Shown here: one piece after another, positions 9,123 to 56,490 of the stretch
How the letters are laid out: each line of letters opens with the position of its first letter
Position numbering within the stretch: position 1 is the first letter of the stretch
DNA from: an uncultured Bacillota bacterium
Lineage (GTDB): Bacteria; Bacillota_I; Bacilli_A; RFN20; CAG-826
Direction: 5' to 3'
Assembly (NCBI GenBank): GCA_937876465.1
Contig: CALEHV010000043.1
Span: 3,198-67,197 of the forward strand
DNA length: 64,000 nt
Notes under the pieces: model-generated
Databases searched by the model: none
What the model was told of the DNA's origin: nothing
What the model saw: the letters and a program-made list of their open reading frames with translations, nothing else
Position numbers and translations under genes: made by a program

Positions 9123-9134
9123 GAGGAAAGCAAA

Positions 9135-9902: not shown

Positions 9903-9916
9903 AAAGGGGCGCACAA

Positions 9917-12900: not shown

Positions 12901-12949
12901 CAATTTAAATATGAAGCCATTTACTTTCGTGTGCTACAAGAAAGGTTAA
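9917..12949 (+). CDS. pulA: Type I pullulanase (GH13), membrane- or lipid-anchored
   Basis: Preferred start is ATG 9917 (MKKKLLSLIAC) behind GAAAGGGG. Motifs FNWGYNP, VVYNHV, GFRFDLMG, YGEGW, ASCHDN. Confidence 0.9.
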   Translation: MKKKLLSLIACVGVGAGLVVTSINYKPVFEPNDPSLGFEEEKVVDYNSPYKVVKADDAPAFVCPTKIVLHYHNDDGNCLNRRFYTWVTGVDGIERKADTEDWTATDMKLTLYLNRPGETSYDYRDMPSLFFIMKVAGTWAGQSEDIELKYEMFPPDENGTLEVWTIPGEGSSVEIYKTEAETKFPKIKTAKFTNWKTIHCEADEKPTYYKLYAFDKNYLKGTTDEQVANKQFHLFKQGTPNSNEFDISFNYTAKINVQYVIESEYSSNPGRIQRIVVSSENLYETERFEQYYTYSGNDLGVTYTDSLVKFKLWSPISAFVTVNIYNTGTPKSLGGDDACRRYEMNYTKGGVWEIGISSDELSLKGKYYTYSLTHSSGSVESMDPYAKACGINGLRGFIYDKDAPEANPEGWNTVPSKWDGVSGYDIQSPQDLSIYEAHIRDFTMDETWVSKQNNKRGTYKAFSEKGTTYSKNGKTVKTGYDHINELGVKAVQLVPVFDNDNDERPEKIKFNWGYNPLNYNCVEGGYSSDPYNPLARIVEYKDLIKSYSENDAHTRIIMDVVYNHVSSASSSCFTKVMPKYYFRYDEKWNYYDGSGCSNECKTDATMMSKYIVDSLCWWASEYKIKGFRFDLMGLIDSWTLRKAKEELYKIDPDIYIYGEGWTSGGYHGKIEKSGDTLINGGSETALVYQQLYDSSTSRGYVGAFNDAGRNALKGSNDDGYNQNPYPQWGFISQVDDVGGKSSIVADMMKGIHTGKGANPKQTVNYASCHDNYTLWDQLNYTHASSYTDKHVPVGRPAVTDMVAASLACHGVVMSSNGVAFIQGGEELYRTKMYGDAELAELMEKGTVRPFPDYVHYSEDPEVESATSDVRWFDNKVITHNSYKASDAVNSFKWDRKIEVDGVDVSSYNEIWAKTIKIHSQTAKYEYPDNLDTPKLNTWNVFDGSTTFGMWNGNTEGTSGYYFVVSNRKSSSSLGIGLDGANLLFASRNDYSYSGGNLNMKPFTFVCYKKG

Positions 12950-12966
12950 TAAGGAGGTAAAACAAA

Positions 12967-31390: not shown

Positions 31391-31656
31391 AATATTAAAT
31401 AATACTAGTGATTTGATATTGAACTTATTAGATAAGGATAATTTTGTAATAAAGAGAGTATTTCTTGTTCCATCTAGAAAGAGTAAATGAGCCTTTTAAG
31501 TCACAGGACAATTTAATTATATTATTCTTAGACTAAAAGCTGGATTTAGAACAAAAACTGAATTAATTATGAGATTTCGCGACAAAATGGTAAGCGGAAA
31601 TAATAAAATTACTTTCAATATTCAAAGTGTTATAATACCGTTATGAGGTGTTTTCT

Positions 31657-34046: not shown

Positions 34047-34772
34047 TTAATTTATATAGATTCCGAACTTAAGATTATGCTTAGTCTTTCTGATGTAGTA
34101 AGGTTCCTGCTCAACAAGTATGTCCTTATCCATATTCTTGATGTCGCTGATGCTCTTACAAGTTCCTAATACAAAGGTTATATGATCTCTATCATGGATG
34201 ATCACTTTGGAGAAGATTTTCTTAAGCGGTATATCTTCTAATGAAGCAATCGTCTTAGTTAGTGGCATGATAGCTTTCTTAAATTGATACAAATAATCAT
34301 TAACTCCATTTGCGGTGGAGATCTCATTCTCTGGCATGACTTTTTTCTTATATAAAGGTTTTAGTTTCTGCTCATAAGCCTTATTAACATCTTTATAGAA
34401 TTCATCATCTATATCTTTATATTTATTAAACTTGGTTTGAAGCTCATTAATTTGAGCCATTATGCTTTCGATTTCTTGTTGCTTATAAATTACATTGTTT
34501 TTCTCTTCAAATGACTCTTCAAGTAATCTAATGAAGTTGTGCTTATTTACAATGATTCTATTCACTACCTTAATGGTGATAAGATCAACAACATCTAATG
34601 GCAGATCTTCATTTTTACATACTTTTCTCGATTTATTTGAGGCACAAACGAATATTCTAGATTCTGTCGGCTTGCTCCTATTGATTATCTTGAAATTATA
34701 GTTTTTACCGCATTTGCCACACATATAGAGACCGGAATAGATACTTTTATTAAAGCAGAGTTTTCCATGCAT
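34047..34772 (-). pseudogene. C-terminal remnant of a large serine recombinase (zinc beta-ribbon plus coiled coil; catalytic resolvase domain missing)
   Basis: SGLYMCGKCGKNYNFKIINRSKPTESRIFVCASNKSRKVCKN followed by a coiled-coil segment. There is no N-terminal resolvase domain and no coding continuation upstream. Confidence 0.55.
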
Positions 34773-35688: not shown

Positions 35689-36798
35689 ATGTTAAGAAAG
35701 TTTACGGTTGAAAATTTTAAATCGTTCAAAGATAAGATAACATTTGATTTATCAAATCCAAGTAACTATAGTTTTAATGAATCATCCGTTCGAAATGGAA
35801 TCGTTAATAATGGTGCGATTTTTGGGATTAATGGAATAGGCAAGTCAAATTTTGGCTTAGCATTGTTCGATATTGTTAATACACTTACTGATAAATATAA
35901 ACAATTTAATTTTTATGATAACTTTATTAATTTAAATACAAATAAACCATTTGCTTTTTTTGAATATGAATTTTTATTCGACAACTCAATACTCATTTAC
36001 AAATATTCTAAGAGAGATGTTAATGAATTAGTTAGTGAATCATTATCAATCGATGGTAAAGAATTAATTTATTATGATTTTAGAGAGAATAAGGGCTTTT
36101 CAACAATTCGAGGCTCCGAAAACCTAATTTTAAACATGAAATCACTTAACTCGCGTGTTAAGTATATCTTAAATACAAATCTTCTTTCTGATAATGATCA
36201 TGTATCAAAAATATTGCTACAATTTAAGGATTTTGTTGATCGCATGCTTCTTTTCTATTCACTAAGAGATAATAATTTTATTGGGTATGCAGATAAAGGA
36301 GAATCGTTGTCTTCTATTATTATCAAAAAAAATAAAGTTAAAGAATTTGAAGATTTGTTAAACTCGCAAGGACTAAACCTTGAAGTTGTTGGTGCAAAGA
36401 CAGTTGATGGAAGGGACGAACTTTTAATTAAATATAAGAACGGGTTTGCAAATTTTTTCAAGGTTTGTTCCACAGGAATGTCAGCTTTAGCATTATTCTT
36501 TTCATGGTTAATTGAACTTGAAAATTGTTCATTAGTTTATATTGATGAATTTGATGCATTTTATCATTATGAATTAGCGGAAAAAATTATTGAAATTATA
36601 AAAAAACACAAAAAAACTCAAATTTTTGTTTCAACCCATAATACTGATTTATTAAGTAATGATCTTCTCAGACCAGATTGTTACTATATATTAACTTGTG
36701 ATAAATTAGAGTCATTAAACAAGTGTACAGAAAAAGAATTAAGACTTGCTCATAATTTACAAAAAATGTTTAAGGCCGGAGCTTTTACTGATAGATGA
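35689..36798 (+). CDS. AAA_15/AAA_21-type ABC ATPase (AbiLi / PARIS AriA-like)
   Basis: SD AGAGGTG. N-terminus MLRKFTVENFKSFKD. Walker A GINGIGKSN, Walker B VYIDEFD, STHNTDLL. Confidence 0.75.
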   Translation: MLRKFTVENFKSFKDKITFDLSNPSNYSFNESSVRNGIVNNGAIFGINGIGKSNFGLALFDIVNTLTDKYKQFNFYDNFINLNTNKPFAFFEYEFLFDNSILIYKYSKRDVNELVSESLSIDGKELIYYDFRENKGFSTIRGSENLILNMKSLNSRVKYILNTNLLSDNDHVSKILLQFKDFVDRMLLFYSLRDNNFIGYADKGESLSSIIIKKNKVKEFEDLLNSQGLNLEVVGAKTVDGRDELLIKYKNGFANFFKVCSTGMSALALFFSWLIELENCSLVYIDEFDAFYHYELAEKIIEIIKKHKKTQIFVSTHNTDLLSNDLLRPDCYYILTCDKLESLNKCTEKELRLAHNLQKMFKAGAFTDR

Positions 36799-37598
36799 AG
36801 AAATCGATGATTCTTATTGTTTATGAAGGGGAAAATAGAGAAGAGAAAATTTTTGAAAATCTAATTTCTATTTTCTTTTCGGGAAAGAATCAAGTTTTGA
36901 TTATTAAAGCTCCTGCCGAATCAAATATAATAATGCTATATAACAAACTTTGCGTTGATGAAGATGCCGATATTTTAGAATTAATCAGAGAAAGTTCAGA
37001 AAAAGGAGCCGAAATACTAAAAAATTATAAGAGAACTGATTTTTCGGAAATATATCTCTTTTTTGATTTTGATGAACACTCTAATAACGGAAAAGGTAAC
37101 AACCTTGAAGCTTTATCGCATATGCTTGAAAAATTTGATAATGAAACTGAAAACGGTAAATTATTTATTAGTTATCCGATGGTTGAAGCGTTAAGAGATT
37201 CAAATTTGCATAATTGTTTTACTTGTTCCAATGATTGCTTTATAAATAGGGCTGATTTTGGTAAATATAAAGAAATAAGTTCTCATAACAATTTAACGGC
37301 AAATTTTTCAAACTATAATTTCTATATATGGAAAACGCTTTCTAATTTTTATTTGAATAGACTGTGCTGTTTGTTGAAAATAAATAGGTTTGATTTTGAA
37401 GTACATTACAATATAGCAACTCAAATTAATATTTTCGAAAATCAATTAAAGGGATATGTTAATTCAGATAGTTGTTTTGTTTTGTCTTCAATACCAAATT
37501 TTCTTCTTACATATTCTAGAAAAAATTGGGATTCCTTGATAGGAAAGAAAAAAATGCCAAAGTTCGATAAATGCAAGAACAACAAAATTATTAGCTAA
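36795..37598 (+). CDS. RloB-like (TOPRIM-like) partner protein (AbiLii-like)
   Basis: ATGA overlap with the ATPase gene. ILIVYEGENREEKIF, FFDFDEH and ISYPMVEAL resemble RloB family motifs. Confidence 0.55.
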   Translation: MKKSMILIVYEGENREEKIFENLISIFFSGKNQVLIIKAPAESNIIMLYNKLCVDEDADILELIRESSEKGAEILKNYKRTDFSEIYLFFDFDEHSNNGKGNNLEALSHMLEKFDNETENGKLFISYPMVEALRDSNLHNCFTCSNDCFINRADFGKYKEISSHNNLTANFSNYNFYIWKTLSNFYLNRLCCLLKINRFDFEVHYNIATQINIFENQLKGYVNSDSCFVLSSIPNFLLTYSRKNWDSLIGKKKMPKFDKCKNNKIIS

Positions 37599-41202: not shown

Positions 41203-42297
41203 ATGAAACAAATTATCAAAGACCTAATTAACAACTTGTGGAATGGTAAAGCAAATGTTATCCATGTTAATAAATCAATGGATGTCAGTGATGTTTTATT
41301 GCGTGATGTAAAAAATGCAATCGACGAGAATAGCAAAAACTATTTCTTTTTCCATGCGTATCCAGGTAACACGAAAGATGTCGATTTACTAAACAACATC
41401 CAGAAAACAATGTATTTGTTAAAAGATAATAAGATGGTTTTTATAATCCAAGATCTTTTCTATTTTCAGTCTCCTCAAGCTATTATTAACGCTTTTTATG
41501 GTAAAAAAAATATTACCGCTATCATTACTACAAATATTGATATTGTTTATGCTTTAAAAAACGATGATACACAAATACGTGGTCGTTACACGAGATATTT
41601 TTTGGCTCCAGAATTATACGGAGATGTAGTAGATACAAGTGATTACCATTTGGATGGACTATTTAATTTCTTTTCAAAAAAAGAAGCAACAGAAATATAT
41701 AAGTATATTGTTTGGCATAGTGGAGAGGTTTTGTCCTTTAGACAGCTATATGAATCTATTAAGGTAAATAAAACTCTTCCATTTTATATTGAAGCGATTA
41801 ATTATATGAATAAGGCTGGCATGATTTATATCCTTGAAAGAGTAGAGATAAAAGAAGGAAAAAAACTGTCTTCTGGAATTGTTTTTTATCCAACTTATGT
41901 TTCTGATATTGATTTAACAGATTTGCCAAATGAAAAGAAATTCAAATTAAAAAACGAAGCTTATCTCGTTGCTAAAATGTTTTCTAATAATTGCATGGTT
42001 TATCGTGCGATATCTTATTATGGCGATACGATTGATGGAAAATATAAATCTAGAGTGGAATTCAACCGTGGATTTCTAATTGAATATTATGACCGTAAAT
42101 GCGTTATTAAAATTGATTTTGACGATGATGATAATGCAATTGATAGATTTAAAAAAGCAAAGAGCAATATTCCTCATATGATTGCAGTTCTAGGGCAAGT
42201 GGAACTAAGAGTAGACAAAGACGGTATGGCTTATTGTGGTTTACAAACGTTGTTTGAGAAAGGCTTAGACGGCTATGGCGGATTTCCAAAGAACTAA
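41203..42297 (+). CDS. Divergent AAA_14/DUF4143-like protein lacking a Walker A motif
   Basis: Its length and layout parallel the downstream paralogue. The P-loop position reads ANVIHVNKSMDVS (no GK[ST]). The gene overlaps the next gene by 23 nt. Confidence 0.5.
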   Translation: MKQIIKDLINNLWNGKANVIHVNKSMDVSDVLLRDVKNAIDENSKNYFFFHAYPGNTKDVDLLNNIQKTMYLLKDNKMVFIIQDLFYFQSPQAIINAFYGKKNITAIITTNIDIVYALKNDDTQIRGRYTRYFLAPELYGDVVDTSDYHLDGLFNFFSKKEATEIYKYIVWHSGEVLSFRQLYESIKVNKTLPFYIEAINYMNKAGMIYILERVEIKEGKKLSSGIVFYPTYVSDIDLTDLPNEKKFKLKNEAYLVAKMFSNNCMVYRAISYYGDTIDGKYKSRVEFNRGFLIEYYDRKCVIKIDFDDDDNAIDRFKKAKSNIPHMIAVLGQVELRVDKDGMAYCGLQTLFEKGLDGYGGFPKN

Positions 42298-43510
42298 AGA
42301 AGTTGATACATTATTATCATTTATTGGTAATGGCAAAGTTAATATTGTTGCTGGTTTAAGAAGAGCTGGAAAGACTTATCTATTAGATACAGTTTTTGTA
42401 AACAAACTAATTAATGAACTAAAAACCTATGTTGAAAAAGATATTGGTATTCTTTACCTTGATAGTGTCGATAAAGACATAAGAACAGAGGTTCAACTCG
42501 ACTCTGCGCTTGCTAATTTAGCTAAAAATAATAAGAAAATCATCATTATTGATGAAGTTCAGTTAGCAACTGGCTTTGTTAATTCATTAAAAGCATTTGT
42601 AAAAATGCATCCAGAGATTGCCGTTTTTGTAACTGGATCTAATAGTGATATTCTTTCTAAACAGATTATTGCTATGTTCCAAGGTTCTGCAGAAACGCTT
42701 ATTATAAATCCACTAACATATAAAGAAATAATAGAAGAAATTCCTGACTATCCTATTGATACTTATGTTGCTTATGGTGGGTTGCCATATATTGTATTAG
42801 AAAAGCAAGAGAAAAAAGCGATTGAATTAGAAAAGATATTTAAAGAGTTATACGAAAGAGATGTTGAATCCAAAATAAATAAAACTTTGAAGTATTTATC
42901 AACTGTCCACGCAAAAGAATTAATCAATTTAATTTCTTCTTCAGCTTCTCCGGTTAGCCCAGCTTCGATTGCGAAGAAGTTTTTGCATGGTTTAAGTAGG
43001 AAGGGATTAGATGAGGTTATTGTCGTAAAAGAAATCAACGACATTTTATCTATTCTTGAAGATTGCTTTTTATTAAAGCACATTTTAATAGACGATTATG
43101 AAAAAAGAACACCATTAGAGAATATTGGTCTTAATAAAAAATACTACTTTGCTGACAATGGTTTAAGGTACATTAAATGTTTTGACTTATCAAAGGCTAT
43201 GGGCTATTGCTTAGAAAATGCTGTATTTATTCATCTTTCCAAGAGAGGAATTATTCCGACAGGTTATCTTATGCTTGGAGAGAAAAATGACATAGTCGGT
43301 GAAATTGATTTTGATTATATGTTCGAAAAGAAGCAATATCTTCTCCAAGTTACTCACACAATTAACGAAAAGGATTATAAAAGAGAGATTGGGAATCTTA
43401 AAGATTTACCTTCTTCATTCATAAAACAAGTTGTATATATGAATAACATAACTGGAAAAGAGGAAGAAGGAATTACTTATCTACGCGGCAAAGAATTCTT
43501 TACTAAATAA
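42275..43510 (+). CDS. AAA_14 ATPase with DUF4143 C-terminal domain
   Basis: Walker A GLRRAGKTYLL, Walker B IIIIDEVQ, plus VTGSNSDIL, YGGLPYIV, KYYFADNGLRY, LENAVFIHL, GEIDFDY. Confidence 0.75.
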   Translation: MADFQRTKEVDTLLSFIGNGKVNIVAGLRRAGKTYLLDTVFVNKLINELKTYVEKDIGILYLDSVDKDIRTEVQLDSALANLAKNNKKIIIIDEVQLATGFVNSLKAFVKMHPEIAVFVTGSNSDILSKQIIAMFQGSAETLIINPLTYKEIIEEIPDYPIDTYVAYGGLPYIVLEKQEKKAIELEKIFKELYERDVESKINKTLKYLSTVHAKELINLISSSASPVSPASIAKKFLHGLSRKGLDEVIVVKEINDILSILEDCFLLKHILIDDYEKRTPLENIGLNKKYYFADNGLRYIKCFDLSKAMGYCLENAVFIHLSKRGIIPTGYLMLGEKNDIVGEIDFDYMFEKKQYLLQVTHTINEKDYKREIGNLKDLPSSFIKQVVYMNNITGKEEEGITYLRGKEFFTK

Positions 43511-44110: not shown

Positions 44111-45022
44111 TCATAATTTAAATTTGTTTCTAAAGTTGTATTTATCAAGCACATTTTTCTTTCTTTTCAAATCGACATGTGTATATATTTCAGTAGTGGA
44201 TATTGATGAATGACCCATCAGTTCTTGAACAGTTCTCAAATCGCCTCCATTTGATAAAAGATTTGTGGCAAAAGTATGTCTTAGACAATGAGGGGTATAT
44301 GTACTAGAAATATGCAACTCTTTTAGCAATTGTTTAAACAGTGAATCTATTGAATGAGTTCCTAGTCTTTCTTTATTTTTGTTCAAAAAAAGATAATCGT
44401 TTTGGCATTCAACACTTTTTCTTATTCTCCAATATCTTTGAAGATTAGACCAGCAATCATTGTTTGGGATATATGCGATTCTTTCTTTCTTTCCTTTTCC
44501 ATGAATGATAATTATTCTGCTGGCAAAGTCAATGTCGTTGATTTTAATGGTACTTGCTTCATTGATACGGATACCAGTAGTTATTAGCAAATCAAATAAT
44601 GCTAAATCGCGATTAGATTTGAAGCAATCATACATAGATGTGCATTTGCTTCTTTGACTATATAGGTGAAAGAGCATTTTTTTGATGATTGATATCGGCA
44701 TTGTCTTTGGGATGCTTTTTTCATCTTTAATGTTTAAAGCAATCTCTTTAGTGTAATTGACTTTAATTTTCTTATTAACTTTTAAATAATCCAAAAATAA
44801 CGATATCGATATTCTTTTCCTTTTTATTGATGATGCTTTATAACCACCTTTTATTAGTGATTGAAAATAAGATGCAACAGTCATTTTGCTTAACAAATTG
44901 TCCTTAAAATGCGAAATGAATAAAGATACATCATATTTATATGCACTTATTGTTTCTTTGCTCTTGTTAGATGATGATTTCAAGTGATCTACATATTCAT
45001 CCAGTAATTTCATCATTTTCAT
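44111..45022 (-). CDS. Tyrosine site-specific recombinase/integrase (XerC/D-like)
   Basis: SD GGAGGAA. Catalytic motifs TGIRINEA, HCLRHTFATNLL, GHSSISTTEIYTHV. Confidence 0.85.
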   Translation of the reverse strand: MKMMKLLDEYVDHLKSSSNKSKETISAYKYDVSLFISHFKDNLLSKMTVASYFQSLIKGGYKASSIKRKRISISLFLDYLKVNKKIKVNYTKEIALNIKDEKSIPKTMPISIIKKMLFHLYSQRSKCTSMYDCFKSNRDLALFDLLITTGIRINEASTIKINDIDFASRIIIIHGKGKKERIAYIPNNDCWSNLQRYWRIRKSVECQNDYLFLNKNKERLGTHSIDSLFKQLLKELHISSTYTPHCLRHTFATNLLSNGGDLRTVQELMGHSSISTTEIYTHVDLKRKKNVLDKYNFRNKFKL

Positions 45023-45112: not shown

Positions 45113-46426
45113 ATGGGTATTTTTGATTTTGAAAAATCATTGATCCACAATGATGAAACCATAGGCAATAGTGATTATTTTTCAGAGTTGCTACAACAAC
45201 CAAGAAGCAGTCATAAGAGAAACTCAGCAAAAGATGTTACAGTTTCAAACATATTCTCCAAAAGACAATGTTGGTCATTTTCTTCTTTAAAAAACGTTTT
45301 TTTCATCAACACAAAATTAAGCAATTTTTCATTTCAAAGTTGTTATTTGGATGGATGTTGTTTCATTAATGATAAGAAAAAGAAATGGCTTCATACAGTT
45401 TATTACACCAATTCTTTTGTAAAGAACACAACTTTTAAAAAAATCGATTTTACCAATGTAGATTTTTCAAATGCTATTTTCCAAAACTGCATTTTTTATT
45501 CAGTCTCTTTTAGATCATGCAATTTTATGCACTCAAAATTTATTAATTGTTCATTTAGATTTGTTTCAATGCGATATTCTAATTTTGAGTATTCTATGTT
45601 TATAAATCCTTCCATAAGTTCATCCGTCTTATCGTTTAATCAATCACCATACATTATTGGTGGCATTGAAATGGTTAAAAATGGTAAATATATTAGACTC
45701 AATCAAAAAGGTGTCTTCATGAAAGCTAATGAATATGGCGATTATTTTCAAGACTTTATTAATTATTATTTAAAAAAAAACGAATTCTTCCCTCTTGTTA
45801 ATCTTTATATGAATTTAAAAGAAGTCGAAAAAGCAAAAGAAGTTGCTTCAATGGGATTTAAAAAGGCAATCATGTTAAATAATCATGAACTAGCTTTTTC
45901 GTTTGCCAGATTGATTAATTATTATGGATTTTTATCTTTTGATGAAAAAAATAGCCTTCTTGAATTTGCGAATCAATCATTAGTACAGCAAGAAAATAAC
46001 GATTATTTAAAAGAAAGATTCTTTTCAATTCAAAATATTGAAGAAGAATTGTTATATCGACCATCTCAAGGCAGCATGCTTGTTGCAATTTTTAAAACTA
46101 ATTTGCTCGAGGGTGATGAAAGACTAAATGATACATTAAAAGATATCGATGAATTTGGTGAGGGGTTTAGCGATGAAAATGGATATCATGTTTTAAAAGT
46201 CTCGCACAACTCTCCGTTCGAAATAGTTTGTTTGATTGTAGGGTTTATTGGGAGTGTTGCTTCTATTTCAAGCGTTATCGATACGGTTATCAAAAAAATC
46301 AAGGAGCGGAAAGCTAAAAAAGATAGCCGCAACAACGAAGTTGATAATGTTGCTATTTCTGGGGCGAATGTCACCATTACATATTCTGATGGCAAGGTAA
46401 TAAGAATTGAAAAAAAGATAAACTAA
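45113..46426 (+). CDS. Pentapeptide-repeat protein with helical middle region and C-terminal transmembrane helix
   Basis: SD GGAG. Tandem pentapeptide repeats, e.g. FKKIDFTNVDFSNAIFQNCIFYSVSFRSCNFMHSKFINCSFRFVSMRYSNFEYSMF. TM helix FEIVCLIVGFIGSVASISSVI. Confidence 0.65.
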   Translation: MGIFDFEKSLIHNDETIGNSDYFSELLQQPRSSHKRNSAKDVTVSNIFSKRQCWSFSSLKNVFFINTKLSNFSFQSCYLDGCCFINDKKKKWLHTVYYTNSFVKNTTFKKIDFTNVDFSNAIFQNCIFYSVSFRSCNFMHSKFINCSFRFVSMRYSNFEYSMFINPSISSSVLSFNQSPYIIGGIEMVKNGKYIRLNQKGVFMKANEYGDYFQDFINYYLKKNEFFPLVNLYMNLKEVEKAKEVASMGFKKAIMLNNHELAFSFARLINYYGFLSFDEKNSLLEFANQSLVQQENNDYLKERFFSIQNIEEELLYRPSQGSMLVAIFKTNLLEGDERLNDTLKDIDEFGEGFSDENGYHVLKVSHNSPFEIVCLIVGFIGSVASISSVIDTVIKKIKERKAKKDSRNNEVDNVAISGANVTITYSDGKVIRIEKKIN

Positions 46427-47307
46427 TATCTTTTATAAATAAGTTTTAATAAGTACGTCTTGTTATCATATTCTTCGTATTGTTCTACAGCATCTGTCTT
46501 TATTTTATAAAGATAGCCATTATTAATTCTTTTAACATTAAAGAAATCCTCGTTCGTTAATATAATCGAAGAATAATTAATAACTAATGTTTCACATTTT
46601 TTAATTGTTTCTAAATCGAAGAATTCTTTTGAAAACCAGGAAAAATAATTCAGCTCTTGCAAAGAAGGTAAACCGTTATCCTTTAACGACATGTTGATTA
46701 AAAAGGAAGATGCTTGAAAGCGAGCGTTTATTTCGATTGCGTATAGTGTGTTTTTTCGATCACGCATAAAATCGACACCACATATACCTCTATATCCAAA
46801 CAATTGCATCTTATGGGCAATTTCTTTAGCTGCAAAATAAGATGACTTAAGAATTTCGTTACCAAGTATTTCGTTAGCATTGATAAAGTCTGCGCCTTGA
46901 TATGATTGCCTTTTTAGGTCGATTATTTGTATGGATGGTTGGAATATTATTACATCTTTTTCACTTATCAAAATATGTCTATTAAAGCTAATTGTGTTTT
47001 CAATAAATTCAGAAACAAGGTAAGTGGTTTCGGGTTTTGTTTCTAGTAATAACTCATCCTTTCTTAATAAAAGAGTATTGTCACATCCTGCGCCATAAGG
47101 CTGTTGCAGAACGAACAATTCAGTATCCTTAAAATATGATGAAAGAGCTTTGTCATTTATTTGAGAACCTTTCAAAACAACATATTTCGGAAATTGAAAA
47201 GAAGACAAATTGAATAGTTTTCGAAATTCGATTTTATTATTAAATAAATCAACAACTTTTTTATCGTTTACAACAAGAAAATTATTTTTAAATAATTTCA
47301 GCATCAA
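46423..47307 (-). CDS. ATP-grasp domain protein
   Basis: GYRGICGVDFMRDRKNTLYAIEINARFQASS (the E-x-N catalytic region of ATP-grasp enzymes). Confidence 0.7.
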   Translation of the reverse strand: MMLKLFKNNFLVVNDKKVVDLFNNKIEFRKLFNLSSFQFPKYVVLKGSQINDKALSSYFKDTELFVLQQPYGAGCDNTLLLRKDELLLETKPETTYLVSEFIENTISFNRHILISEKDVIIFQPSIQIIDLKRQSYQGADFINANEILGNEILKSSYFAAKEIAHKMQLFGYRGICGVDFMRDRKNTLYAIEINARFQASSFLINMSLKDNGLPSLQELNYFSWFSKEFFDLETIKKCETLVINYSSIILTNEDFFNVKRINNGYLYKIKTDAVEQYEEYDNKTYLLKLIYKRY

Positions 47308-47665: not shown

Positions 47666-48508
47666 ATGTGGAAAAAGAAAAATGCAATCAAATCTCTAAA
47701 TTGGTCTTTATCTATTTCTTCTTTTATTGGGGCACTTTTGTCTTTTATATTACTTCCAAGTAATTTTTGGTGGATTGGGCTAATTATATTCGTAGCAACA
47801 TTTATAATAGTGTTCTTCGCAATATATTTAGTTTTAAGATTCAAAAAACGCCACAGAATCTCTGGTAGAGGCTCGGTTTTTATTGAATCTAGGTATGGTA
47901 ATGTTTTAAACATTAAAAAGGACAAACGTGAAAAATTAAAACCGGTTGTTGTAATTCCTGTTAATTCTTCGTTTGACACTATAGTGGAAGATAGCCCAAG
48001 CATTGTAGACAGAATTGTTGAGGGGACTTCAATTCATGGACAATGGTTAAGACAATATGCTTCAACACCTGAATTATTAGAAAAACTTGATATGGATATT
48101 AGTCAATTTATTGCTAACAAACATTGGGTTCCTATTAAAGTGCTAGACAATAAAAGAGGTAAGAAAGATGTTTATCCTCTAGGAAGCTATGTATTCATTG
48201 AATCAAACGATTGTATCTTTTTGTTATTCGCGCTAACTGAATTTAACGAACATAATAAAGTTGTAAAAAAAGATGCCGAGGAATTTACTATCTTAATGAA
48301 AAAACTTATGGATATCACTGATGAATGTGCTGGTAAACACGTCTATATTCCTATAATGGGAACAAAAATTGCTCTTTTTGGAATTGATGATTTAGCTTCA
48401 TTTGAATATATAAAGAATGCAGCCTTAAATAAAAAATGTTCCTTGAGGGCATCTATATCTATCGTTATTTATGAAGCTTCTAGGGATAAAGTTTCTATTT
48501 ATGATTAA
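47666..48508 (+). CDS. thsA: Type II Thoeris ThsA-like effector (two N-terminal TM helices plus Macro-like domain)
   Basis: TM segments LSISSFIGALLSFILL and WIGLIIFVATFIIVFFAIYLVL. Macro-like VVVIPVNSSFDT...GTSIHGQW...VYIPIMGT. Confidence 0.55.
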   Translation: MWKKKNAIKSLNWSLSISSFIGALLSFILLPSNFWWIGLIIFVATFIIVFFAIYLVLRFKKRHRISGRGSVFIESRYGNVLNIKKDKREKLKPVVVIPVNSSFDTIVEDSPSIVDRIVEGTSIHGQWLRQYASTPELLEKLDMDISQFIANKHWVPIKVLDNKRGKKDVYPLGSYVFIESNDCIFLLFALTEFNEHNKVVKKDAEEFTILMKKLMDITDECAGKHVYIPIMGTKIALFGIDDLASFEYIKNAALNKKCSLRASISIVIYEASRDKVSIYD

Positions 48509-48519
48509 GGAGATAGAAA

Positions 48520-49146
48520 ATGAGCCATAGAGTATTTATAAGTTTTAAAAAAGAAGATCGTCGATATAAAGATGCGATTGTTAAAAGACTTGAAGAAAAA
48601 GAAATACAAGTTAATCATTTAGACGAAACAATTCAATCAGACAATATCGATTATGTAATGCAACAAATTCGAGATAAATGGCAAGGATCAACAACAGTTA
48701 CTGTATTTTTGATAGGCGAACACTCATCAGAAAACGAGGGTGTTGATATTTATGGAAGAAATCACCAAAGCTTTATTATTAGGGAATTAAGATCGGCTCT
48801 TTCGGATAGGGACGGAAATCCTCGCGATGGCATTTTGGGTGTTGTTTTGCCAGAAATGGAACAAAAAGTTTATGGTGGTTCATATAAATGCGAACATTGT
48901 CAACAAGTGATAAATGTTATTAATATAAATGATTCAACCGTAATTAGGGAGTTCTCCAAGAATTATTATTTAAAAGCAGATCAATGTGGACATTATTGCG
49001 AAGATGGACGGTTTTGTGTTTTGTGTCGATATAGTGAATTTATGAATGACCCAGAAAAATATATTGATAGGGCATATGATAAGATTAATGAACCAATTGC
49101 TAAGTGTGTAACTTATAAAGGAATTAATCATAAAGGAAACTATTAG
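48520..49146 (+). CDS. thsB: ThsB-like TIR-like (DUF1863-type) protein
   Basis: SD GGAGA. HRVFISFKKEDRRYKD, TVTVFLIGEHSS and FIIRELRSAL fit the TIR-like pattern. Lies 11 nt after the ThsA-like gene. Confidence 0.6.
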   Translation: MSHRVFISFKKEDRRYKDAIVKRLEEKEIQVNHLDETIQSDNIDYVMQQIRDKWQGSTTVTVFLIGEHSSENEGVDIYGRNHQSFIIRELRSALSDRDGNPRDGILGVVLPEMEQKVYGGSYKCEHCQQVINVININDSTVIREFSKNYYLKADQCGHYCEDGRFCVLCRYSEFMNDPEKYIDRAYDKINEPIAKCVTYKGINHKGNY

Positions 49147-49171: not shown

Positions 49172-50146
49172 ATGGCAAATTCAATAGAAAGAATGGGAGT
49201 TCATCATATAGGCGAAATTGCAGAAAATAGTGGATGGTTATTTCGTGAACAGCTAACAAATGATATCGGCATTGACGCTCACATTGAGTTTATTGATTCA
49301 TCTAATAAGCCAAAACAACTAATTGCCTTACAAATAAAATCTGGTAGTAGTTGGTTTAACGAGAAAACCAAAGATTATGTTGTTTTTCGCGATATCGACG
49401 AGAGACAATATTCATATTGGACAATGAATTCTTTGCCATGCATTATAGTTCTGTATAATCCTAATGATAATACTTGTATATGGCAGGAGTTATCAAATAA
49501 AACAATAGAAAAAACAAAAAATGGTAATGGGAAAGGTTATTTTGTTAAAATCCCACTTAACCAGATTTTTTTAGATTCTTCATCAAATGAAAAATTACTT
49601 TCATTAACCAATCTTCCTGAACATATCGTAAATTATAATTTCCTGTTATCTCAAAAGGTGTTTATGGAAGTGATTAACAATGGTGGGGTTGTAAAACTAC
49701 ATTCATGTGAATGGGTGAATAAATCTAGCGGCAGGGGCGAAACGGAACTAATAATAGATGATGGGAATGAAATAAAGAAATATTCCTATCCCTATTGGTT
49801 CCCTTTTACTCCATACGAAGACGTTTTTCCGCGTTTATTTCCTTGGGCTTCTTTTTCTCCCGACGAGGAATTTTATCAAGATAGTGATGAAACACTGTGG
49901 AAAGATTTAAATTGTTGGTATGACAAAGAAGAAGATGATTGGATTGTTGTGGGAGAATCTTTTGAAGAATTTCGCAAAAGTCTTAATCCAATAAGGAGCG
50001 TTGACCATGCTGGTGAAGTTGCTGAATATATGTTGATTCTTGCATTAAACGATTTAGGAAAATCATTTTTAAAAGTTGATGAATTCTTATCTAATGACCA
50101 ACCATATAATTCTACTAGGCCAAAAGAAGAGGATGATTATAAATGA
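49172..50146 (+). CDS. DUF4365 (PD-(D/E)xK-like) domain protein with unknown C-terminal domain
   Basis: ERMGVHHIGEIAENSGWLFREQLTNDIGIDAHIEF...LIALQIKSGSSWF...YWTMNSLPCIIVLYN matches the DUF4365 pattern. Confidence 0.6.
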   Translation: MANSIERMGVHHIGEIAENSGWLFREQLTNDIGIDAHIEFIDSSNKPKQLIALQIKSGSSWFNEKTKDYVVFRDIDERQYSYWTMNSLPCIIVLYNPNDNTCIWQELSNKTIEKTKNGNGKGYFVKIPLNQIFLDSSSNEKLLSLTNLPEHIVNYNFLLSQKVFMEVINNGGVVKLHSCEWVNKSSGRGETELIIDDGNEIKKYSYPYWFPFTPYEDVFPRLFPWASFSPDEEFYQDSDETLWKDLNCWYDKEEDDWIVVGESFEEFRKSLNPIRSVDHAGEVAEYMLILALNDLGKSFLKVDEFLSNDQPYNSTRPKEEDDYK

Positions 50147-50541
50147 ATATTAAGTTATCTGAGTATAAAAATCCAAATACAATTTCGGATGAATGCGAAC
50201 TAGATCCAGCACAAGAATATGTGCTAATCGATTTTGAATCAGAATTAAAAATACAATCCGCCATTCTGATGTCTTTTCAGATAATGGATGCTCCTTCGGC
50301 TCTCAAAAATTATCATGCATGGTTATACAAAAATGGATTTGATATTAATTCGCCAAATCCAACCAATGCATTTGTATCTTCTTTTTATGGAAATATGTCA
50401 TTGTGGAAGACGAATTATTCACAGGGAATAGTCGTAAAAGTTGATGGAGATGATGATTATTTCATTGTTATGGAATGTAGTTCAAAGAATAAAGGCTATA
50501 AACATTCGAGAGTCGTTTTGACATTAGGCGGATGTTTGTAA
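50143..50541 (+). CDS. 132-aa protein of unknown function (full-length parent of the 37632-37932 repeat)
   Basis: ATGA overlap with the DUF4365 gene. No recognisable motif. Confidence 0.6.
   Translation: MNIKLSEYKNPNTISDECELDPAQEYVLIDFESELKIQSAILMSFQIMDAPSALKNYHAWLYKNGFDINSPNPTNAFVSSFYGNMSLWKTNYSQGIVVKVDGDDDYFIVMECSSKNKGYKHSRVVLTLGGCL
50241..50541 (+). repeat. Direct repeat copy 2
   Basis: Matches 37632-37932. The 3' 200 nt are identical. Confidence 0.9.
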
Positions 50542-50715
50542 CATATCTTATGCAAAAAAGGAAGTAATTACTGAAATAATAATTTTCATGTATTTCTTAA
50601 ATATCATTTATAAAGAAATTCCCACGTCATAATTTCTTTGACACTTATTGGAATTTTACATTTTTATAATTGATAGGAAAATTCAATTATGATAATTTAT
50701 TGATAGGAGAAATAT

Positions 50716-50808
50716 ATGGAAACAATTTCAACTGGTTTAGAATTTAATGGTATAGACAACATTATTTGTGGTGTCAATATTCTTTGCAACACAAAATGCG
50801 GTCAATAA
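50716..50808 (+). CDS. 30-aa Cys-rich RiPP precursor peptide candidate
   Basis: SD AGGAG 5-6 nt upstream. METISTGLEFNGIDNIICGVNILCNTKCGQ. The stop overlaps the start of the radical SAM gene. Confidence 0.6.
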   Translation: METISTGLEFNGIDNIICGVNILCNTKCGQ

Positions 50809-52043
50809 AACTATCAAGGTATACCATTTTTTATCATACAAAGAATGGGCATACATATTTTTATAATACTCTTTTTAATTCATTATCTAGATTAAACCCA
50901 GAATATTCTTCCAAAATTACCAACATCGATTCGATTGATTTATGGCCCAACGACATCAAGGACTATCTTTTAAAGTTACATTTTTTGTATTACGAAGACG
51001 ACATAATCGAAAGCAATGTCATTAAAGACAAAGAATTTATGTTTTTTTCTGATGAAACAGACTTTGCTGTAATAAATTTTGTTACTAGTCTCGGTTGTAA
51101 TCTCAATTGCCCATATTGTTATGAGAATCACAGTTTATTGAATTATATAACAAAAGAAAGATATGATGATGTCATCGAACATCTTGCGAATAAAAAATAT
51201 AGAGGATATCATTTTTCATGGTTTGGAGGTGAACCACTGTTAAGAATTAATGATATTTGTTACTTTTTATCTAACTTAATATCAAAAAATGCGAAAAGTC
51301 CAATACCATTTACTTGCGACTTGACGACAAATGCCACCTTGTTAACTCTAGAAACCATCAAATTGCTTGTGAATCTTGGCATAGACACCTATCAAATAAC
51401 TTTGGATGGCATAGATGAAAACTCTCACAATAAGACTAGAAAATTTAAAAATGGCACAGGGTCCTTTGATTTAATCATGTCGAATTTGAGAAAAATCAAG
51501 AGCGCGGATATCAAATGCAAAATTGTTATTAGATTTAATGTCGCTAATGTAAGACAGTGTAAACCCTTTATTGATTTTTTTAAAAGTGAATTTGGGAACG
51601 ACAATAGATTCTCTTGCTTACTATTTCCAATTAGTAAATGGAGTGCTGTTAATTCGTTTGACAATTATTGTGACTCAGATGTTTTTGATTTAAATAAAAT
51701 CGTCATAAAAGAGAAGGCTAATTCGGAATACTTAAACATTTTGATTAATTCAAACCTATTTTGTGAATATGGCTTCTCTGATAAAATAGTGATAAATCCA
51801 AATAACACTATTGGAAATTGCACTTTACAGTTTGAAAATGTTTATGGGAAATCTGATTCTGAACATCTAAATGAAATTAAAAATTTGAGGAAAAAATATA
51901 ATAATGTTAATTGTTATCTTTATCCAAAATGTTTTGGGTTCAGATGCAAAAATATGAATGTTAATGATAATGAATGTCGAGAATTAAGATATAAATTCCA
52001 AGATTTTTTGTATGAATATTTCGAAGAACATAGTAAAAAGTAG
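50796..52043 (+). CDS. Radical SAM / SPASM-type peptide maturase
   Basis: CNLNCPYC (CxxxCxxC) about 95 aa from the N-terminus, which leaves room for an RRE-like domain. GGEPLL motif. C-terminal Cys cluster FCEYG...GNCT...NCYLYPKCFGFRC. Confidence 0.8.
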   Translation: MRSIKLSRYTIFYHTKNGHTYFYNTLFNSLSRLNPEYSSKITNIDSIDLWPNDIKDYLLKLHFLYYEDDIIESNVIKDKEFMFFSDETDFAVINFVTSLGCNLNCPYCYENHSLLNYITKERYDDVIEHLANKKYRGYHFSWFGGEPLLRINDICYFLSNLISKNAKSPIPFTCDLTTNATLLTLETIKLLVNLGIDTYQITLDGIDENSHNKTRKFKNGTGSFDLIMSNLRKIKSADIKCKIVIRFNVANVRQCKPFIDFFKSEFGNDNRFSCLLFPISKWSAVNSFDNYCDSDVFDLNKIVIKEKANSEYLNILINSNLFCEYGFSDKIVINPNNTIGNCTLQFENVYGKSDSEHLNEIKNLRKKYNNVNCYLYPKCFGFRCKNMNVNDNECRELRYKFQDFLYEYFEEHSKK

Positions 52044-53679
52044 TTTCTTTTGCAATAAATTTTTGCTTACAATAGTTTTGCTACTGTCGATTATTGAATC
52101 TTTTTGTGTTGTTTTTTTCTCGTTTGTTATTGAAAAGATAATTAATATGGGGATAGCTGGCGAAAGCATAATTAATCTCCTTTTATTTGCAATTATTTCC
52201 GTTGTATTATTTGTTACATTTTTCTTTTTATTTAATTTCACTTTTAATATTTATGCCGAAAGTGCTTCAAAGAGACTCAGGTTTAATTTATTTAACTTAT
52301 ATTTTTCAAGCAGACCATCGGTTTTTACTACGCGCGATAATGAGTATTATGTTTCTAAAATCGTTAATGACGCACGCATTATATCCAATAATTATTATTG
52401 TAATCTAATTTTATTTATTCGCAGCTTATCGAAAATAATATTAGGTTTAGCTTATGCATTCTATGTTCATTATGCAATAGCAATCTTGTTTATTGTGTTT
52501 TCGCTTACATTGTTTATTGTTGTCTTGTTATTTCCAAAAAAGTTGAGTAAAAAGAGAAACGAACAAGTTAATGCATCTGAAAAATATATAGGAGCATTAA
52601 CAAAAGCATTTAGCGTGCATAATTCCGCTTATTATTTTGATTCTAATAATTTTGTAAAAAACAAGACTGACGAATTAAATAATTATTTAAGAGAAAAGGA
52701 AACAAAAATATCTATTTTTAGTACCTTTATTAATTCTACTGCAACTTTTATAACCATTTTTGTCCAAATGACTTCTATCATTTTTTCAATTATGCTTTAT
52801 AGCAAGGGAATTATTGAGTTAGGTGCTCTAACATCTGTTTTAGTTCTCTCATCTTATATTCTTAATCCTGCCTCTGAACTTTCGATAATTATTACTTCGA
52901 TTTTTGGGTGTAAGAAAATCATTCAAAGTATCAAACTAGATACATATAAGTATGGAGTTGAGGCTGTTGAGAATCCAAAATTATTAAAAAACATCCAAGA
53001 AATTTGTGTTAATAATGCAACTTTTTTGTTCGAAAATGGCAGTGGTTTTAATAAATTAAATATAACAATTCAAAAGAATAAAAAAGTTTTAATTCTTGGC
53101 AATAGCGGTTCAGGAAAAACTACATTTTTGAAATTGTTAGCAGGAATTTACGAATGTGATAATAATTGTAAAATTATTTTTCAAAATGGAGAAAGCGAAG
53201 TTATTTCATCTTCGAATTTGATTTCTTATTGCGAGCAAAATCCAGCAATTTTTGACGCAAGTGTTGAAGCGAACATCACTTTTTCTAGTGAGATTGATAA
53301 TGAGAGACTCAAAAAGTCTATGATTAAGAGTCGCTTATGTTTTGAAGAAGACAACTATTTAGATTGTTTAAAGAAATTAAATGATAGTAATTTGTTGTCT
53401 GGTGGTGAAATAAAGAGAATTGGATTGGCAAGGATGTTTTATAAAGATAGTGAAATCATGATTTTTGATGAGCCAGCAACCTCGTTGGACAAAAACAACG
53501 AAAAAATTGTTTACGAAAACATTCTTGATTTAAAAAATAAAATTATAGTATGCGTTGCTCACAAGCCCCCAATTTCCATTGCCTCAAAGTTCGATAAAGT
53601 ATACCGCCTCGATGATTTTAAACTTACTGAAATTGATAATTTGGATGATGTTTCCGATCTTATTGAAAATGACAATTGA
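52012..53679 (+). CDS. ABC exporter (fused TMD-NBD), no C39 peptidase domain
   Basis: Six-helix N-terminal half. Walker A GNSGSGKTT, signature LSGGEIKRI, Walker B IMIFDEPATSLD. Confidence 0.8.
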   Translation: MNISKNIVKSSFFCNKFLLTIVLLLSIIESFCVVFFSFVIEKIINMGIAGESIINLLLFAIISVVLFVTFFFLFNFTFNIYAESASKRLRFNLFNLYFSSRPSVFTTRDNEYYVSKIVNDARIISNNYYCNLILFIRSLSKIILGLAYAFYVHYAIAILFIVFSLTLFIVVLLFPKKLSKKRNEQVNASEKYIGALTKAFSVHNSAYYFDSNNFVKNKTDELNNYLREKETKISIFSTFINSTATFITIFVQMTSIIFSIMLYSKGIIELGALTSVLVLSSYILNPASELSIIITSIFGCKKIIQSIKLDTYKYGVEAVENPKLLKNIQEICVNNATFLFENGSGFNKLNITIQKNKKVLILGNSGSGKTTFLKLLAGIYECDNNCKIIFQNGESEVISSSNLISYCEQNPAIFDASVEANITFSSEIDNERLKKSMIKSRLCFEEDNYLDCLKKLNDSNLLSGGEIKRIGLARMFYKDSEIMIFDEPATSLDKNNEKIVYENILDLKNKIIVCVAHKPPISIASKFDKVYRLDDFKLTEIDNLDDVSDLIENDN

Positions 53680-53923: not shown

Positions 53924-55991
53924 ATGATTATGATATATACAAAATTAACAATTTTTCGTTAAAATCTTTTAAAAATTATACCACACCAAACAATATGTTG
54001 TTTAAAAAGAACAGTGTGTTCTTTGGTTATAACGGCAAAGGAAAAACATCTTTGGCCAAAGGGATCGAGAAAGAAATTAGAGATATACAGGGGATTAATG
54101 ACAATGAGTTTAGAATATTTTCAAAAGATTATTTAAAACTAAAACTTGTCAACGATGAAAGAAGAATTAAAGGGGTCAAGGCTGTTTTTGGAAATAAAAA
54201 TGTAAAAAACGATGAGGAAATTGAAAAACTAAAAGAAAAAATACAGGATACAACGGTTTTGTCTAATGAAATTGTTTCAAACCTAAAATCGATTGATTCT
54301 TTGATTAAAACTATCGAAGATGGGATAAGAGGATCAAAAAAGATTCGTCATGTTTCTGTCACTAATCATGAGGAGTTGGCGAATTTTAAAGCTACTTTTC
54401 AAAATATGAAGGCAATGGCATTGAAAATTACAACCGTAGATAAACTTGAAACCATCAATGTAGAATTTGATTTTGAAAGAGCTAAATCAGATTTAGAATC
54501 ATTACCAACTATTGATTTATTAAATCTAACAGACGATTTAAATACAGCATCAAAAATAGCTAATAGCCCATATAAGATGGAGGATATTCCGGCCACGAAA
54601 GTGCTTGACTGGATTGAACAAGGAATATTACTGAATAAAGAGAGAAAAAAATGTTTGTTTTGTGGATCTGAGTTAACTAATTATGACAAAATTGTAGAGA
54701 ATTTTAAAGAATTCGTTAATTCTACTAAGCAAAAAGACGAAAGATTGTTAATTAATTTTTTTGAAGTCCTAAAAAGCGAGATACTCAAAATTGAAAATTT
54801 TATCAGCCACGAACAAATATTCGAAAACTGTGGCATTAATATCTCTTCACAAATCAAAGCACTTGCTGAATATAAAGATAGGCTTTGTTATTTCAAGGAA
54901 AGAATTAATGATAAACTATCAAACTTTGAGTCTTTAATTTCTATTGAATTTGGTGATATTGAAATTAAACGAACCATTGCATCTGGCGCTTTGTTCAAAT
55001 TAAACATATAGTTTCTGATTCCATAACGAGATTGACTAAGGAAGAAAGTAAACTTAATGACTTGTTAAAAGGATCTATTGCATTAAAGATTTTGAGCAAT
55101 AAAAAAATTAATGAACTAGCCAAGGAAACAAATGAAATGATAGTCAAACTAAAAGCTATCGAGGAGTCAAATTTGCTACTTAATAGTCAAATAAGAAATT
55201 TAAAAAATAAAGTTAAAGTTACTAGTGATTTTGCAATTTTTATCAATGGTATTTTGCTCGATTTAGATTTTAAGTTTAAATTAGATATTATTGAAGAAGA
55301 TTATCGCATTGTTCCGTTAAAAAGCGATACTGAAATCGATATCGATGAAATTAGTGAAGGTGAAAGGAATCTTTTGTCGCTACTTTTCTTTTATTTTGAG
55401 TTGTTCGACGATGATAAACAAACTCATTTTAAAGAAGATATACAGTATGTTATTGTGGATGATCCTCTCTCCAGTTTAGATGATAATAATCGCGCTTATT
55501 TAATTTCTATTTTGCAATTATTATTCAAGCAGAATAATGTTCAAGTTTTTGTTTTTACACATGATTGGGATGCCTATTGCCAACTTTTGTATAATGCAGA
55601 CAAAGATAATTTTGGTAGTTTTGAAATAAAAAAAGATAATAACGGTGTTTCGAGTGTAGAAATAGGAAAACCGACAATCACACCCTACGAACATGATTTC
55701 TTTGAATTATTAGATATGTCCAGTAAAACTGCTGATTCATTGGATGATGGTGATATTTATCATTTACCAAATTGCATGAGAAGAGTGTTGGAGTCTTTTT
55801 TGAAATTTAAAGTACCGAATAGTTCCCCAACAAATAAAAACGTTGCTAATGTTAGGAAAGGTCTCTTCAACAAAGATACTTTAGAAGCCAAAGAACAAAC
55901 CAAATTAATGCCATTACTTTTAGTTATTAATTCTCAATCACATGAAGCGGCAAGAAATGGCGAAGAAGTATATAAAGCTTTAAAATTTTAA
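53924..55991 (+). pseudogene. Decayed second AAA_13 / RloC-PrrC-like ATPase (N-terminal frameshift and a mid-gene interruption)
   Basis: MIMIYTKLTIFR* shifts into NFSLKSFKNY...FFGYNGKGKTSL. Also CLFCGS, a break at 55011-55032, ISEGERNLL, VIVDDPLSSLD, FTHDWD, CMRRVLESF and NSQSHEA. Confidence 0.65.
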
Positions 55992-56399: not shown

Positions 56400-56490
56400 T
56401 GGCGGAGGATAAGAGATTTGAACTCTTGCGCCCCTTTCAGAGCCTATAAGCTTTCCAAGCCTACCCCTTCAGCCTCTTGGGTAATCCTCC
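56400..56490 (-). tRNA. tRNA-Ser (anticodon GGA), type II with long variable arm, CCA encoded
   Basis: Manual fold of the reverse complement. Acceptor GGAGGAT/ATCCTCC, D stem CCC/GGG, anticodon stem TAGGC/GCTTA with loop TTGGAAA, long variable arm, T arm AAGAG-TTCAAAT-CTCTT, discriminator G plus CCA. Confidence 0.85.

Follow-up and report, generated by a model that had tools for sequence, protein, structure and literature searches.

Positions 50,716 to 53,679 of a 64-kb stretch of DNA from an uncultured Bacillota bacterium (contig CALEHV010000043.1; the whole stretch of 64,000 nucleotides is referred to as the window) hold three overlapping genes on the forward strand, which encode a 30-residue precursor peptide, a radical S-adenosylmethionine (SAM)/SPASM peptide maturase and an ATP-binding cassette (ABC) exporter (Table 1). 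As judged from the three genes, it is rather likely that this cluster directs the synthesis of a peptide that is made ribosomally and modified after translation (RiPP), of the NxxC type, in which radical thioethers would join asparagine to cysteine. The product is probably a tri-cyclic peptide, given the sequence of the precursor. With less assurance, and by analogy to the streptococcal enzyme NxxcB, the acceptor is assigned to the asparagine β-carbon, which would make the product a ranthipeptide.

The precursor peptide and its family

An earlier interpretation made from the DNA sequence alone (the sequence-only reading) had pointed to a 30-codon open reading frame (ORF) preceded by an AGGAG Shine-Dalgarno (SD) sequence, whose last codons overlap the start of the radical SAM gene. 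Both features were borne out (Table 1). The same reading described the core as C-x5-C-x3-C, a pattern unlike that of any precursor it recognized; the informative pattern is instead that of three N-x-x-C motifs (N-I-I-C, G-V, N-I-L-C, N-T-K-C), as in the NxxC family of radical SAM RiPPs (RaS-RiPPs). The precursor ORF alone contains at least two NxxC motifs among the 368 ATG-initiated ORFs of 20-60 amino acids in the window. Its description as unannotated holds for the ORF track given to that reader and not for the public record, where the exact 30-residue sequence already exists as a predicted protein in a singleton cluster.

A search of homologous loci for conserved short ORFs, proposed in the sequence-only reading as a check, returned 12 distinct peptides of 27-37 amino acids that have a strong SD and adjoin a maturase homologue (Table 2). 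A short ORF adjoins the maturase gene in every relative with sufficient flanking DNA, and the homologous precursors all have AGGAG(G) 6-9 nucleotides (nt) upstream. Because the ORF is conserved, with SD sequences, beside maturase homologues, it is regarded as a real gene, and a chance ORF was rejected on the same grounds. L002 and L005 are separated by 27 nucleotide differences (codon changes: 9 synonymous, 12 non-synonymous), and the N and C positions are kept.

The N-terminal motif M-[ET]-[ILV]-x-x-x-x-[YLF] extends across the family (alignments A3 and A5), and the only invariant positions after Met1 in alignment A5 are N15, C18 and C24. Over the 12 distinct peptides, Asn stands at position -3 of 17 of the 32 cysteine residues, and Asn or Gln stands at -3 or -4 of 27 of them. 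When each peptide was shuffled, the mean counts were 3.1 and 7.5, respectively, and none of 20,000 shuffles reached either observed count, a result that is not a strict probability since the peptides are related, although their identity is only 16-35%. A third cysteine with N or Q upstream of it occurs in 8 of the 12 members. The last cysteine is the C-terminal residue of the L155 peptide and is followed by a single residue in four other peptides; therefore, its reaction partner would have to lie upstream.

A comparable arrangement is seen at L018, from a Halothermothrix metagenome-assembled genome (MAG), where three tandem precursors of 30-31 amino acids (MKLLVLRN..., positions 5552-5904) lie 5′ of a 26%-identical radical SAM gene and each contains NxxxC, NxxxC and QxxC. 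The logic of N or Q upstream of Cys therefore extends past the tight clade, and a wider peptide superfamily with this feature may exist. A separate observation concerns more distant maturase relatives (L024, L031 and L043, from Mycoplasma-like, Falcatimonas and Bacillales MAGs), which are accompanied by another type of precursor (…LDACGCTGNxxC). A CefA-like peptide of the "Cys-every-fifth" kind lies beside a 29%-identical maturase relative at L108.

Table 2 Precursor peptides at loci related to the window cluster.
Loci	Peptide	Remarks
L001/L008	MEILQVQYTDESLLNIKCVQNIICGVDAKYCHLE	
L002/L003/L010/L105	MTVEYISSEENTELFNLICVGKNIKCD	
L005/L006/L107	MTVEYVSIEEDDELLNVFCPVKNVECK	
L013/L106	MTVEYVKINDITNLLNIFCVNNNNCEAPTLS	
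L011	MTVAYVGAKTSGSVALGVNINCGGSCNGRCLSFVAL	Located 3′ of the maturase gene
L012	MELLVEGYTNFYSQSNNVLACQSRCVLNYVGCLN	L153 is a near-identical variant
L009/L020	MEIVVEGYDGLFTESINIIACQKKCVLNYLGCGS	GTG start
L154	MELLFDELTCDSFDEALNVFCTQNFGCK	
L155	MKVVLKPNTSSTSRGLKNYGCVINKRNCRC	
L156	MEEIFLPEVTVGESTTQFIICFPDDFENCAASE	
L158	MKVIQKPAINKKSKKNSRQTILCTVKNIIGCTFKNCK	

The radical SAM maturase

Alignment with homologues sets the start of the maturase at ATG 50796 (MRSIKLSRYTIFY...) and rejects the upstream TTG 50766. The 13-nt overlap with the precursor gene follows from this start, and the maturase is translationally coupled to the precursor. Pfam recognizes Radical_SAM (PF04055) and Fer4_12 only. Among NCBIfam models, the enzyme matches best those for RiPP maturases of Cys-rich peptides (geopeptide, TIGR04463, Clo7bot and CefB), and next the ranthipeptide maturase PapB, with alignments that begin at residue 4-5 and scores of at most 115 bits versus curated cut-offs of 340-600, so that no family cut-off is reached. 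The family placement, also proposed as a check in the sequence-only reading, puts the enzyme among peptide-modifying radical SAM/SPASM enzymes and not among small-molecule ones.

The closest solved structure by sequence is that of CteB (5WGG, E 1.4e-6; 16% identity), followed by SkfB. An AlphaFold (AF2) model computed from 75 homologues (predicted local distance difference test score, pLDDT, 89.8; predicted template modeling score, pTM, 0.90) exhibits an N-terminal domain of ~85 residues, strands followed by helices, that precedes the radical SAM barrel. Foldseek ranks CteB (5wgg) first (E 3e-14), then anSME, TigE, SuiB, ChlB and SkfB. The model aligns over its full length with CteB, TigE and SuiB, which bear a RiPP recognition element (RRE), and likewise with anSME. 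As modeled, the maturase appears to belong to the RRE-radical SAM (rSAM)-SPASM class of peptide maturases. The CNLNCPYC motif, the RRE-like N-terminus and the C-terminal auxiliary Cys cluster of the sequence-only reading are all recovered, the motif at residues 101-108 and the two domains, as putative ones, through this full-length fold alignment and through the six conserved cysteines of the SPASM region. Pfam SPASM and RRE/PqqD models searched against the isolated maturase termini gave no match.

The cysteine residues conserved in the family are C101, C105, C108, C323, C342, a cysteine near 368-370, C373, C379, C384 and C394, of which those from C323 onward constitute a seven-Cys SPASM pattern. 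The window maturase keeps six of these seven, as well as a GGEP motif. In CteB, a pattern of this kind reportedly means that one of the auxiliary clusters has an open site, to which the substrate cysteine binds (Grove et al. 2017).

The exporter

The third gene encodes a half-transporter in which the transmembrane domain (TMD) and the nucleotide-binding domain (NBD) are fused. Pfam assigns ABC_membrane to residues 20-286 and ABC_tran to residues 347-489, and the Walker A, signature and Walker B motifs are intact in the translation. In agreement with the sequence-only reading, which had described an ABC exporter without a C39 peptidase domain that overlaps the maturase gene by 32 nt, Pfam found no C39 domain, the transmembrane domain beginning at residue 20. 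Alignments to peptidase-bearing families start at model position ~145-159. The protein also matches exporter families of NCBIfam, among them that of GggC, the exporter of streptosactin (1.1e-32), but in every case below cut-off. Across the related loci, the maturase recurs with a precursor and, in most cases, with one ABC gene or a pair of them; a pair occurs at L001 and, on the opposite strand, at L011, and no ABC gene is adjacent at L156 and L158.

Comparison with known systems

The N-x-x-C motif is the namesake of the streptococcal NxxC subfamily of RaS-RiPPs (PMC9389541, PMC8326336), known from NxxcA/NxxcB of Streptococcus orisratti (Caruso et al., J Am Chem Soc 2019, summarized in PMC9389541, PMC8326336). 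NxxcB bonds the Cys sulfur to the Asn β-carbon within the NxxC motif (Cys23-Asn20), which was the first radical β-thioether reported. The enzyme accepts Gln, Asp or Ala as the acceptor, and the Cys donor is essential (PMC9389541, PMC8326336). Related chemistry between Asn Cβ and Cys is that of SycC (PMC10989515). The network criterion that defines the NxxC family is adjacency to a shp/rgg quorum-sensing operon in a Streptococcus genome (PMC11851443), and the natural product of the family and its function are uncharacterized (PMC13361665).

Like NxxcA/NxxcB, the window cluster combines a short precursor, in whose N-x-x-C core the Asn (the acceptor or, in the window peptide, the predicted acceptor) lies upstream of the Cys, with an adjacent radical SAM/SPASM maturase and a transporter. 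Some relatives of the window peptide have Gln in place of Asn, a replacement that NxxcB tolerates. In contrast to NxxcA, for which a single bridge is reported, the window family has two or three tandem motifs, and some relatives show N-x3-C spacing. Also unlike the NxxC family, the window cluster has no shp/rgg genes beside it, and the hosts of the window family are not streptococci; they are MAGs of uncultured low-GC to mid-GC Bacilli. The likeness to the NxxC family is one of motif, short precursor, operon and, as proposed, upstream-acceptor topology.

From its sequence, the maturase appears to share the RRE-rSAM-SPASM build and the use of Cys-containing peptide substrates with the CteB/SCIFF and PapB maturases (PDB 5WGG/5WHY; TIGR03974, NF047865). 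These enzymes perform thioether chemistry on Cys-containing peptides, and the same may be predicted by analogy for the window maturase. It scores far from both families, however, with 49.5 bits versus a cut-off of 425 (TIGR03974) and 90.7 versus 340 (NF047865). The Cys residues of SCIFF and PapA have their acceptor (Thr, Asp) downstream, and the precursors comprise about 45 amino acids, unlike the window peptide. The best full-length neighbors among hidden Markov models (HMMs) are those of geopeptide (TIGR04280), TIGR04463, Clo7bot (TIGR04334) and CefB (NF038107), aligned from residue 4-5 to about 345. These four NCBIfam families, which are uncharacterized, pair with short Cys-rich precursors as in the window cluster, but the window maturase reaches 98-115 bits versus cut-offs of 400-600, and the precursor motifs differ.

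Small unnested rings, which are also predicted for the window peptide, are formed by radical SAM/SPASM enzymes in streptosactin (GggA/B/C) and suisactin (QmpA/B). There too, the exporter is a dedicated ABC protein that has no peptidase domain, and Asn is the proposed acceptor in the window peptide as it is for QmpB. Unlike the window family, streptosactin and suisactin are α-carbon sactionines with GGG and QMP motifs, are streptococcal and are linked to shp/rgg.

Proposed biosynthesis

The precursor, maturase and exporter genes would constitute a minimal, translationally coupled operon. The RRE-like domain of the maturase would bind a leader of ~14 residues, and the cluster coordinated by C101, C105 and C108 would cleave SAM to generate the 5′-deoxyadenosyl radical, which would take a hydrogen from a side-chain or backbone carbon of Asn. 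With its thiol activated on the SPASM auxiliary Fe-S cluster, the Cys located three residues downstream would then be joined to this carbon in a C-S linkage. Repeated at N15-C18, N21-C24 and N25-C28, this reaction would yield three small, non-nested, four-residue thioether rings, with an expected mass change of -6 Da. The α- and β-carbons are indistinguishable as partners here because sequence and neighborhood alone cannot separate them. The ABC half-transporter would export the product, which may act as a bacteriocin or a signal. Leader removal, if any, would fall to an enzyme encoded outside the cluster: Pfam, NCBIfam and PADLOC scans of the flanking genes revealed no protease, immunity or Rgg-type gene at the cluster, and the sequence-only reading had likewise seen no dedicated leader protease or immunity gene.

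A more far-reaching proposal is put forward tentatively, and its correctness must be considered doubtful. The maturase clade may be an independent lineage and not orthologous to NxxcB. On a precursor that ranks among the shortest known for RiPPs, the clade would place two or three consecutive [Asn/Gln]-to-Cys thioether staples, with rings that abut (C24/N25) or, in relatives, overlap (L155). It would then represent a compact, programmable "N/Q-x2-3-C" system of uncultured gut-type Bacilli with new bioactivity.

If the NxxC assignment is true, NxxC-type stapling is extended from one single-bridge streptococcal enzyme, studied in vitro, to multi-ring peptides, and it reaches a group of uncultured Bacilli. 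The three-gene system, with its substrate of 27-37 residues and its [N/Q]-x2-3-C rule, would be an attractive enzymatic tool for peptide macrocyclization and a starting point in the search for a new bioactive peptide that is secreted. The cluster represents a known kind of peptide natural product, of which it is a new and rare member that has no name. As such it is a lead for genome mining and biocatalysis that should not surprise specialists, and the current view of RiPP biosynthesis is unchallenged.

Distribution of the maturase clade

A protein search with the maturase returned a single relative with 42% identity and, in the range of 31-34%, three clusters; further matches form a continuum at up to 38% identity, mostly with partial coverage of the query. 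When 1.84 billion cluster representatives were searched with a profile, two proteins scored ~620 bits and about eleven scored 280-370 bits, and a continuum followed below about 250 bits. The tight maturase clade amounts to approximately a dozen clusters among these 1.84 billion representatives, all from uncultured Bacilli. A metagenome scan added three further clade loci only, all from a sample already represented. No close relative (identity at most 30%) was found among the phages and plasmids of IMG/VR, INPHARED and PLSDB, and a phage or plasmid origin of the cluster was rejected on this basis.

Alternative explanations

Several observations weigh against the NxxC assignment. The thioether chemistry is deduced from the genes, and the N-x-x-C motif may be common to the window family and NxxcA by convergence. 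The L156 and L158 peptides obey the N/Q rule only in part. The lack of matches to the Pfam SPASM and RRE models also counts against it. Of 311 relatives from species-representative genomes, the best 80 include no Streptococcus locus, a weak hint against a close relationship with NxxcB. In addition, QmpB couples the Cys sulfur to the α-carbon of Asn (PMC11851443). A sactipeptide-type product with Cys-S to α-carbon bridges, either to the upstream Asn as for QmpB or to another nearby residue as for GggB with its four-residue rings, is accordingly a serious alternative, though the odds are clearly against it. GggB makes small unnested sactionine rings (PMC11851443, PMC13361665), an analysis from the Mitchell laboratory places GggB and QmpB near ranthisynthases with PapB/NxxcB-like ring processing (PMC10288494), and SkfB figures among the proteins that match the maturase by sequence and by fold. 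On the other hand, the N-x-x-C spacing agrees exactly with that for the β-thioether enzyme NxxcB. The positions of the cysteines also exclude the classical hairpin of N-terminal donors and C-terminal acceptors: all cysteines are in the C-terminal half, and at most one residue follows the last cysteine in five members of the family. The RiPP interpretation of the sequence-only reading, with its sactipeptide/ranthipeptide-type layout, is supported. Of the refuting conditions that it named, the two open to computation did not hold: the short ORF is conserved beside maturase homologues, and the maturase groups with peptide-modifying enzymes, with CteB as its best solved fold. A hairpin sactipeptide topology is unlikely.

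The maturase itself raises a further difficulty for the NxxC assignment. In the window maturase (residues about 361-374, window 51876-51917), Tyr/Asn takes the place of the first Cys of the Cx2-4C element in the SPASM region (slot ~368-370). All other full-length sequences in A4, an alignment of 17 clade sequences, have this Cys, and the window enzyme might be impaired. Clear lesions are found in other clade members as well: an internal deletion in the radical SAM gene of L013/L106 takes out the CxxxCxxC region, and P0121 (L154) and P0123 (L155) are without the first Cys of CxxxCxxC. These degenerate members suggest frequent decay of the cluster, or assembly errors. Together with the location of the cluster in an accessory island beside a frame-split PDC-S06 gene, these findings would fit a decaying, non-productive window cluster, in which the peptide is made and left unmodified or poorly modified after loss of an auxiliary-cluster ligand. 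Such decay is nonetheless improbable. All three ORFs are intact and overlap tightly, the CxxxCxxC and GGEP motifs and six SPASM cysteines are retained, and the position of the absent Cys is variable in the clade anyway (CxxC versus Cx4C). A modification other than a thioether (for example epimerization, cross-linking through C-C or C-O, or oxidation of Cys), with the cysteines then serving in disulfides or as metal ligands, is quite unlikely. The radical SAM/SPASM fold is common to the epimerase EpeE, the C-C cross-linker SuiB and anSME, and the maturase reaches no curated family cut-off; however, the conserved core residues are only Asn/Gln and Cys at fixed spacing, the peptide family has no conserved aromatic, Lys or Thr partner, and the nearest HMM families all work on Cys-rich peptides. 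The surroundings, finally, could be taken to mean that the RiPP cluster is a functional part of an anti-phage island and acts in phage defense rather than as a bacteriocin or signal. It lies between the Thoeris-like and DUF4365 genes and the PDC-S06 ATPase, JetABC precedes the L002/L003 cluster, and AAA_14 and Fic genes precede that of L005. The flanks are housekeeping genes elsewhere (the dcw cluster at L001/L008, RNase Y and RecA at L155), so defense linkage is not systematic. Close relatives are lacking on phage and plasmid records, the PADLOC match is that of the generic radical SAM core of pVip only, and the recurrent partners of the maturase are the precursor and, mostly, ABC genes only. 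A role in defense is thus hardly to be expected.

Genomic neighborhood and upstream region

The cluster is located within an accessory defense/mobile island of ~27 kb (window 29397-56490) that ends at a tRNA-Ser gene (Table 1). The DUF4365 protein is restriction-endonuclease-like and matches the restriction endonuclease module of proteins associated with short prokaryotic Argonautes (short-pAgo). For the adjacent 132-residue protein, Pfam, NCBIfam and PADLOC gave no family match. The AAA_13/PDC-S06-type ATPase is split over two ORFs in different frames and is probably a frameshifted pseudogene. A MerR-type gene is found 5′ of the cluster in some relatives.

Immediately upstream of the precursor, a tandem 30-nt duplication (50669-50698 and 50699-50728; 70% identity) spans the SD and the start codon. 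The second copy holds the SD and the ATG of the precursor, and the first is degenerate, with a 4-codon mini-ORF. Scans for promoters and terminators gave matches not above those in shuffled sequence; TTGACA (50638) and TATAAT (50665), 21 nt apart, are too far from each other and were ruled out as a canonical promoter. An Rfam search for a structured RNA or riboswitch upstream of the precursor matched tRNA-Ser only. The genome has a GC content of 30.7%, uses TGG for Trp throughout and almost lacks in-frame TGA. The Mollicutes code (table 4) was rejected on the basis of this TGG and TGA usage; table 11 applies, and the ORF calls in the window therefore stand.

Table 1 Features of the cluster and of the surrounding island, in window coordinates.
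Feature	Position	Strand	Remarks
Precursor peptide gene	50716..50808	+	30 aa, METISTGLEFNGIDNIICGVNILCNTKCGQ; stop TAA; conserved family; recorded predicted protein
Shine-Dalgarno AGGAG	50705..50709	+	6 nt 5′ of precursor ATG
Intergenic leader region	50542..50715	+	Presumed site of the promoter
Putative leader, residues 1-14	50716..50757	+	Alignments A3 and A5; leader/core boundary putative
NxxC motif 1, N15-I-I-C18	50758..50769	+	N15 and C18 invariant in A5
NxxC motif 2, N21-I-L-C24	50776..50787	+	C24 invariant; N21 kept in at least 70% of A5
NxxC motif 3, N25-T-K-C28	50788..50799	+	Abuts motif 2 directly
Radical SAM/SPASM peptide maturase, 415 aa	50796..52043	+	Pfam Radical_SAM 1.1e-20; 13-nt overlap with precursor
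N-terminal RRE-like domain, residues 1-85	50796..51050	+	DSSP of model: four short strands, then helices
CxxxCxxC (CNLNCPYC; C101, C105, C108)	51096..51119	+	Invariant in the 75-sequence alignment A2
SPASM-like auxiliary cluster region	51747..51995	+	C323, C342, C373, C379, C384, C394 conserved
ABC exporter, fused TMD-NBD half-transporter, 555 aa	52012..53679	+	32-nt overlap with maturase gene
AIPR	31648-33666		Island
Recombinase remnant	34047-34772	-	Island
PDC-M12A/B AbiL-like pair	35689-37598		Island
AAA_14	42275-43510		Island
Tyrosine integrase	44111-45022	-	Island
Pentapeptide-repeat protein	45113-46426		Island
ATP-grasp	46423-47307	-	Island
Thoeris-like pair	47666-49146		ThsA: N-terminal membrane segment and Macro (PADLOC ThsA1, 2.6e-46); ThsB: TIR (8.4e-15)
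DUF4365 gene (324 aa), then 132-aa gene	49172-50541		4-nt overlap
AAA_13/PDC-S06-type ATPase, split	53995-55011 and 55032-55991		Two ORFs in different frames
tRNA-Ser	56400-56490	-	End of island

Farther from the cluster, window positions 5835-17018 encode large secreted proteins of the glycoside hydrolase type, namely an alpha-amylase with Big_2 domains, a CBM48 protein and a Big_2-rich protein, which are consistent with a starch- or glycogen-degrading organism of the gut type.

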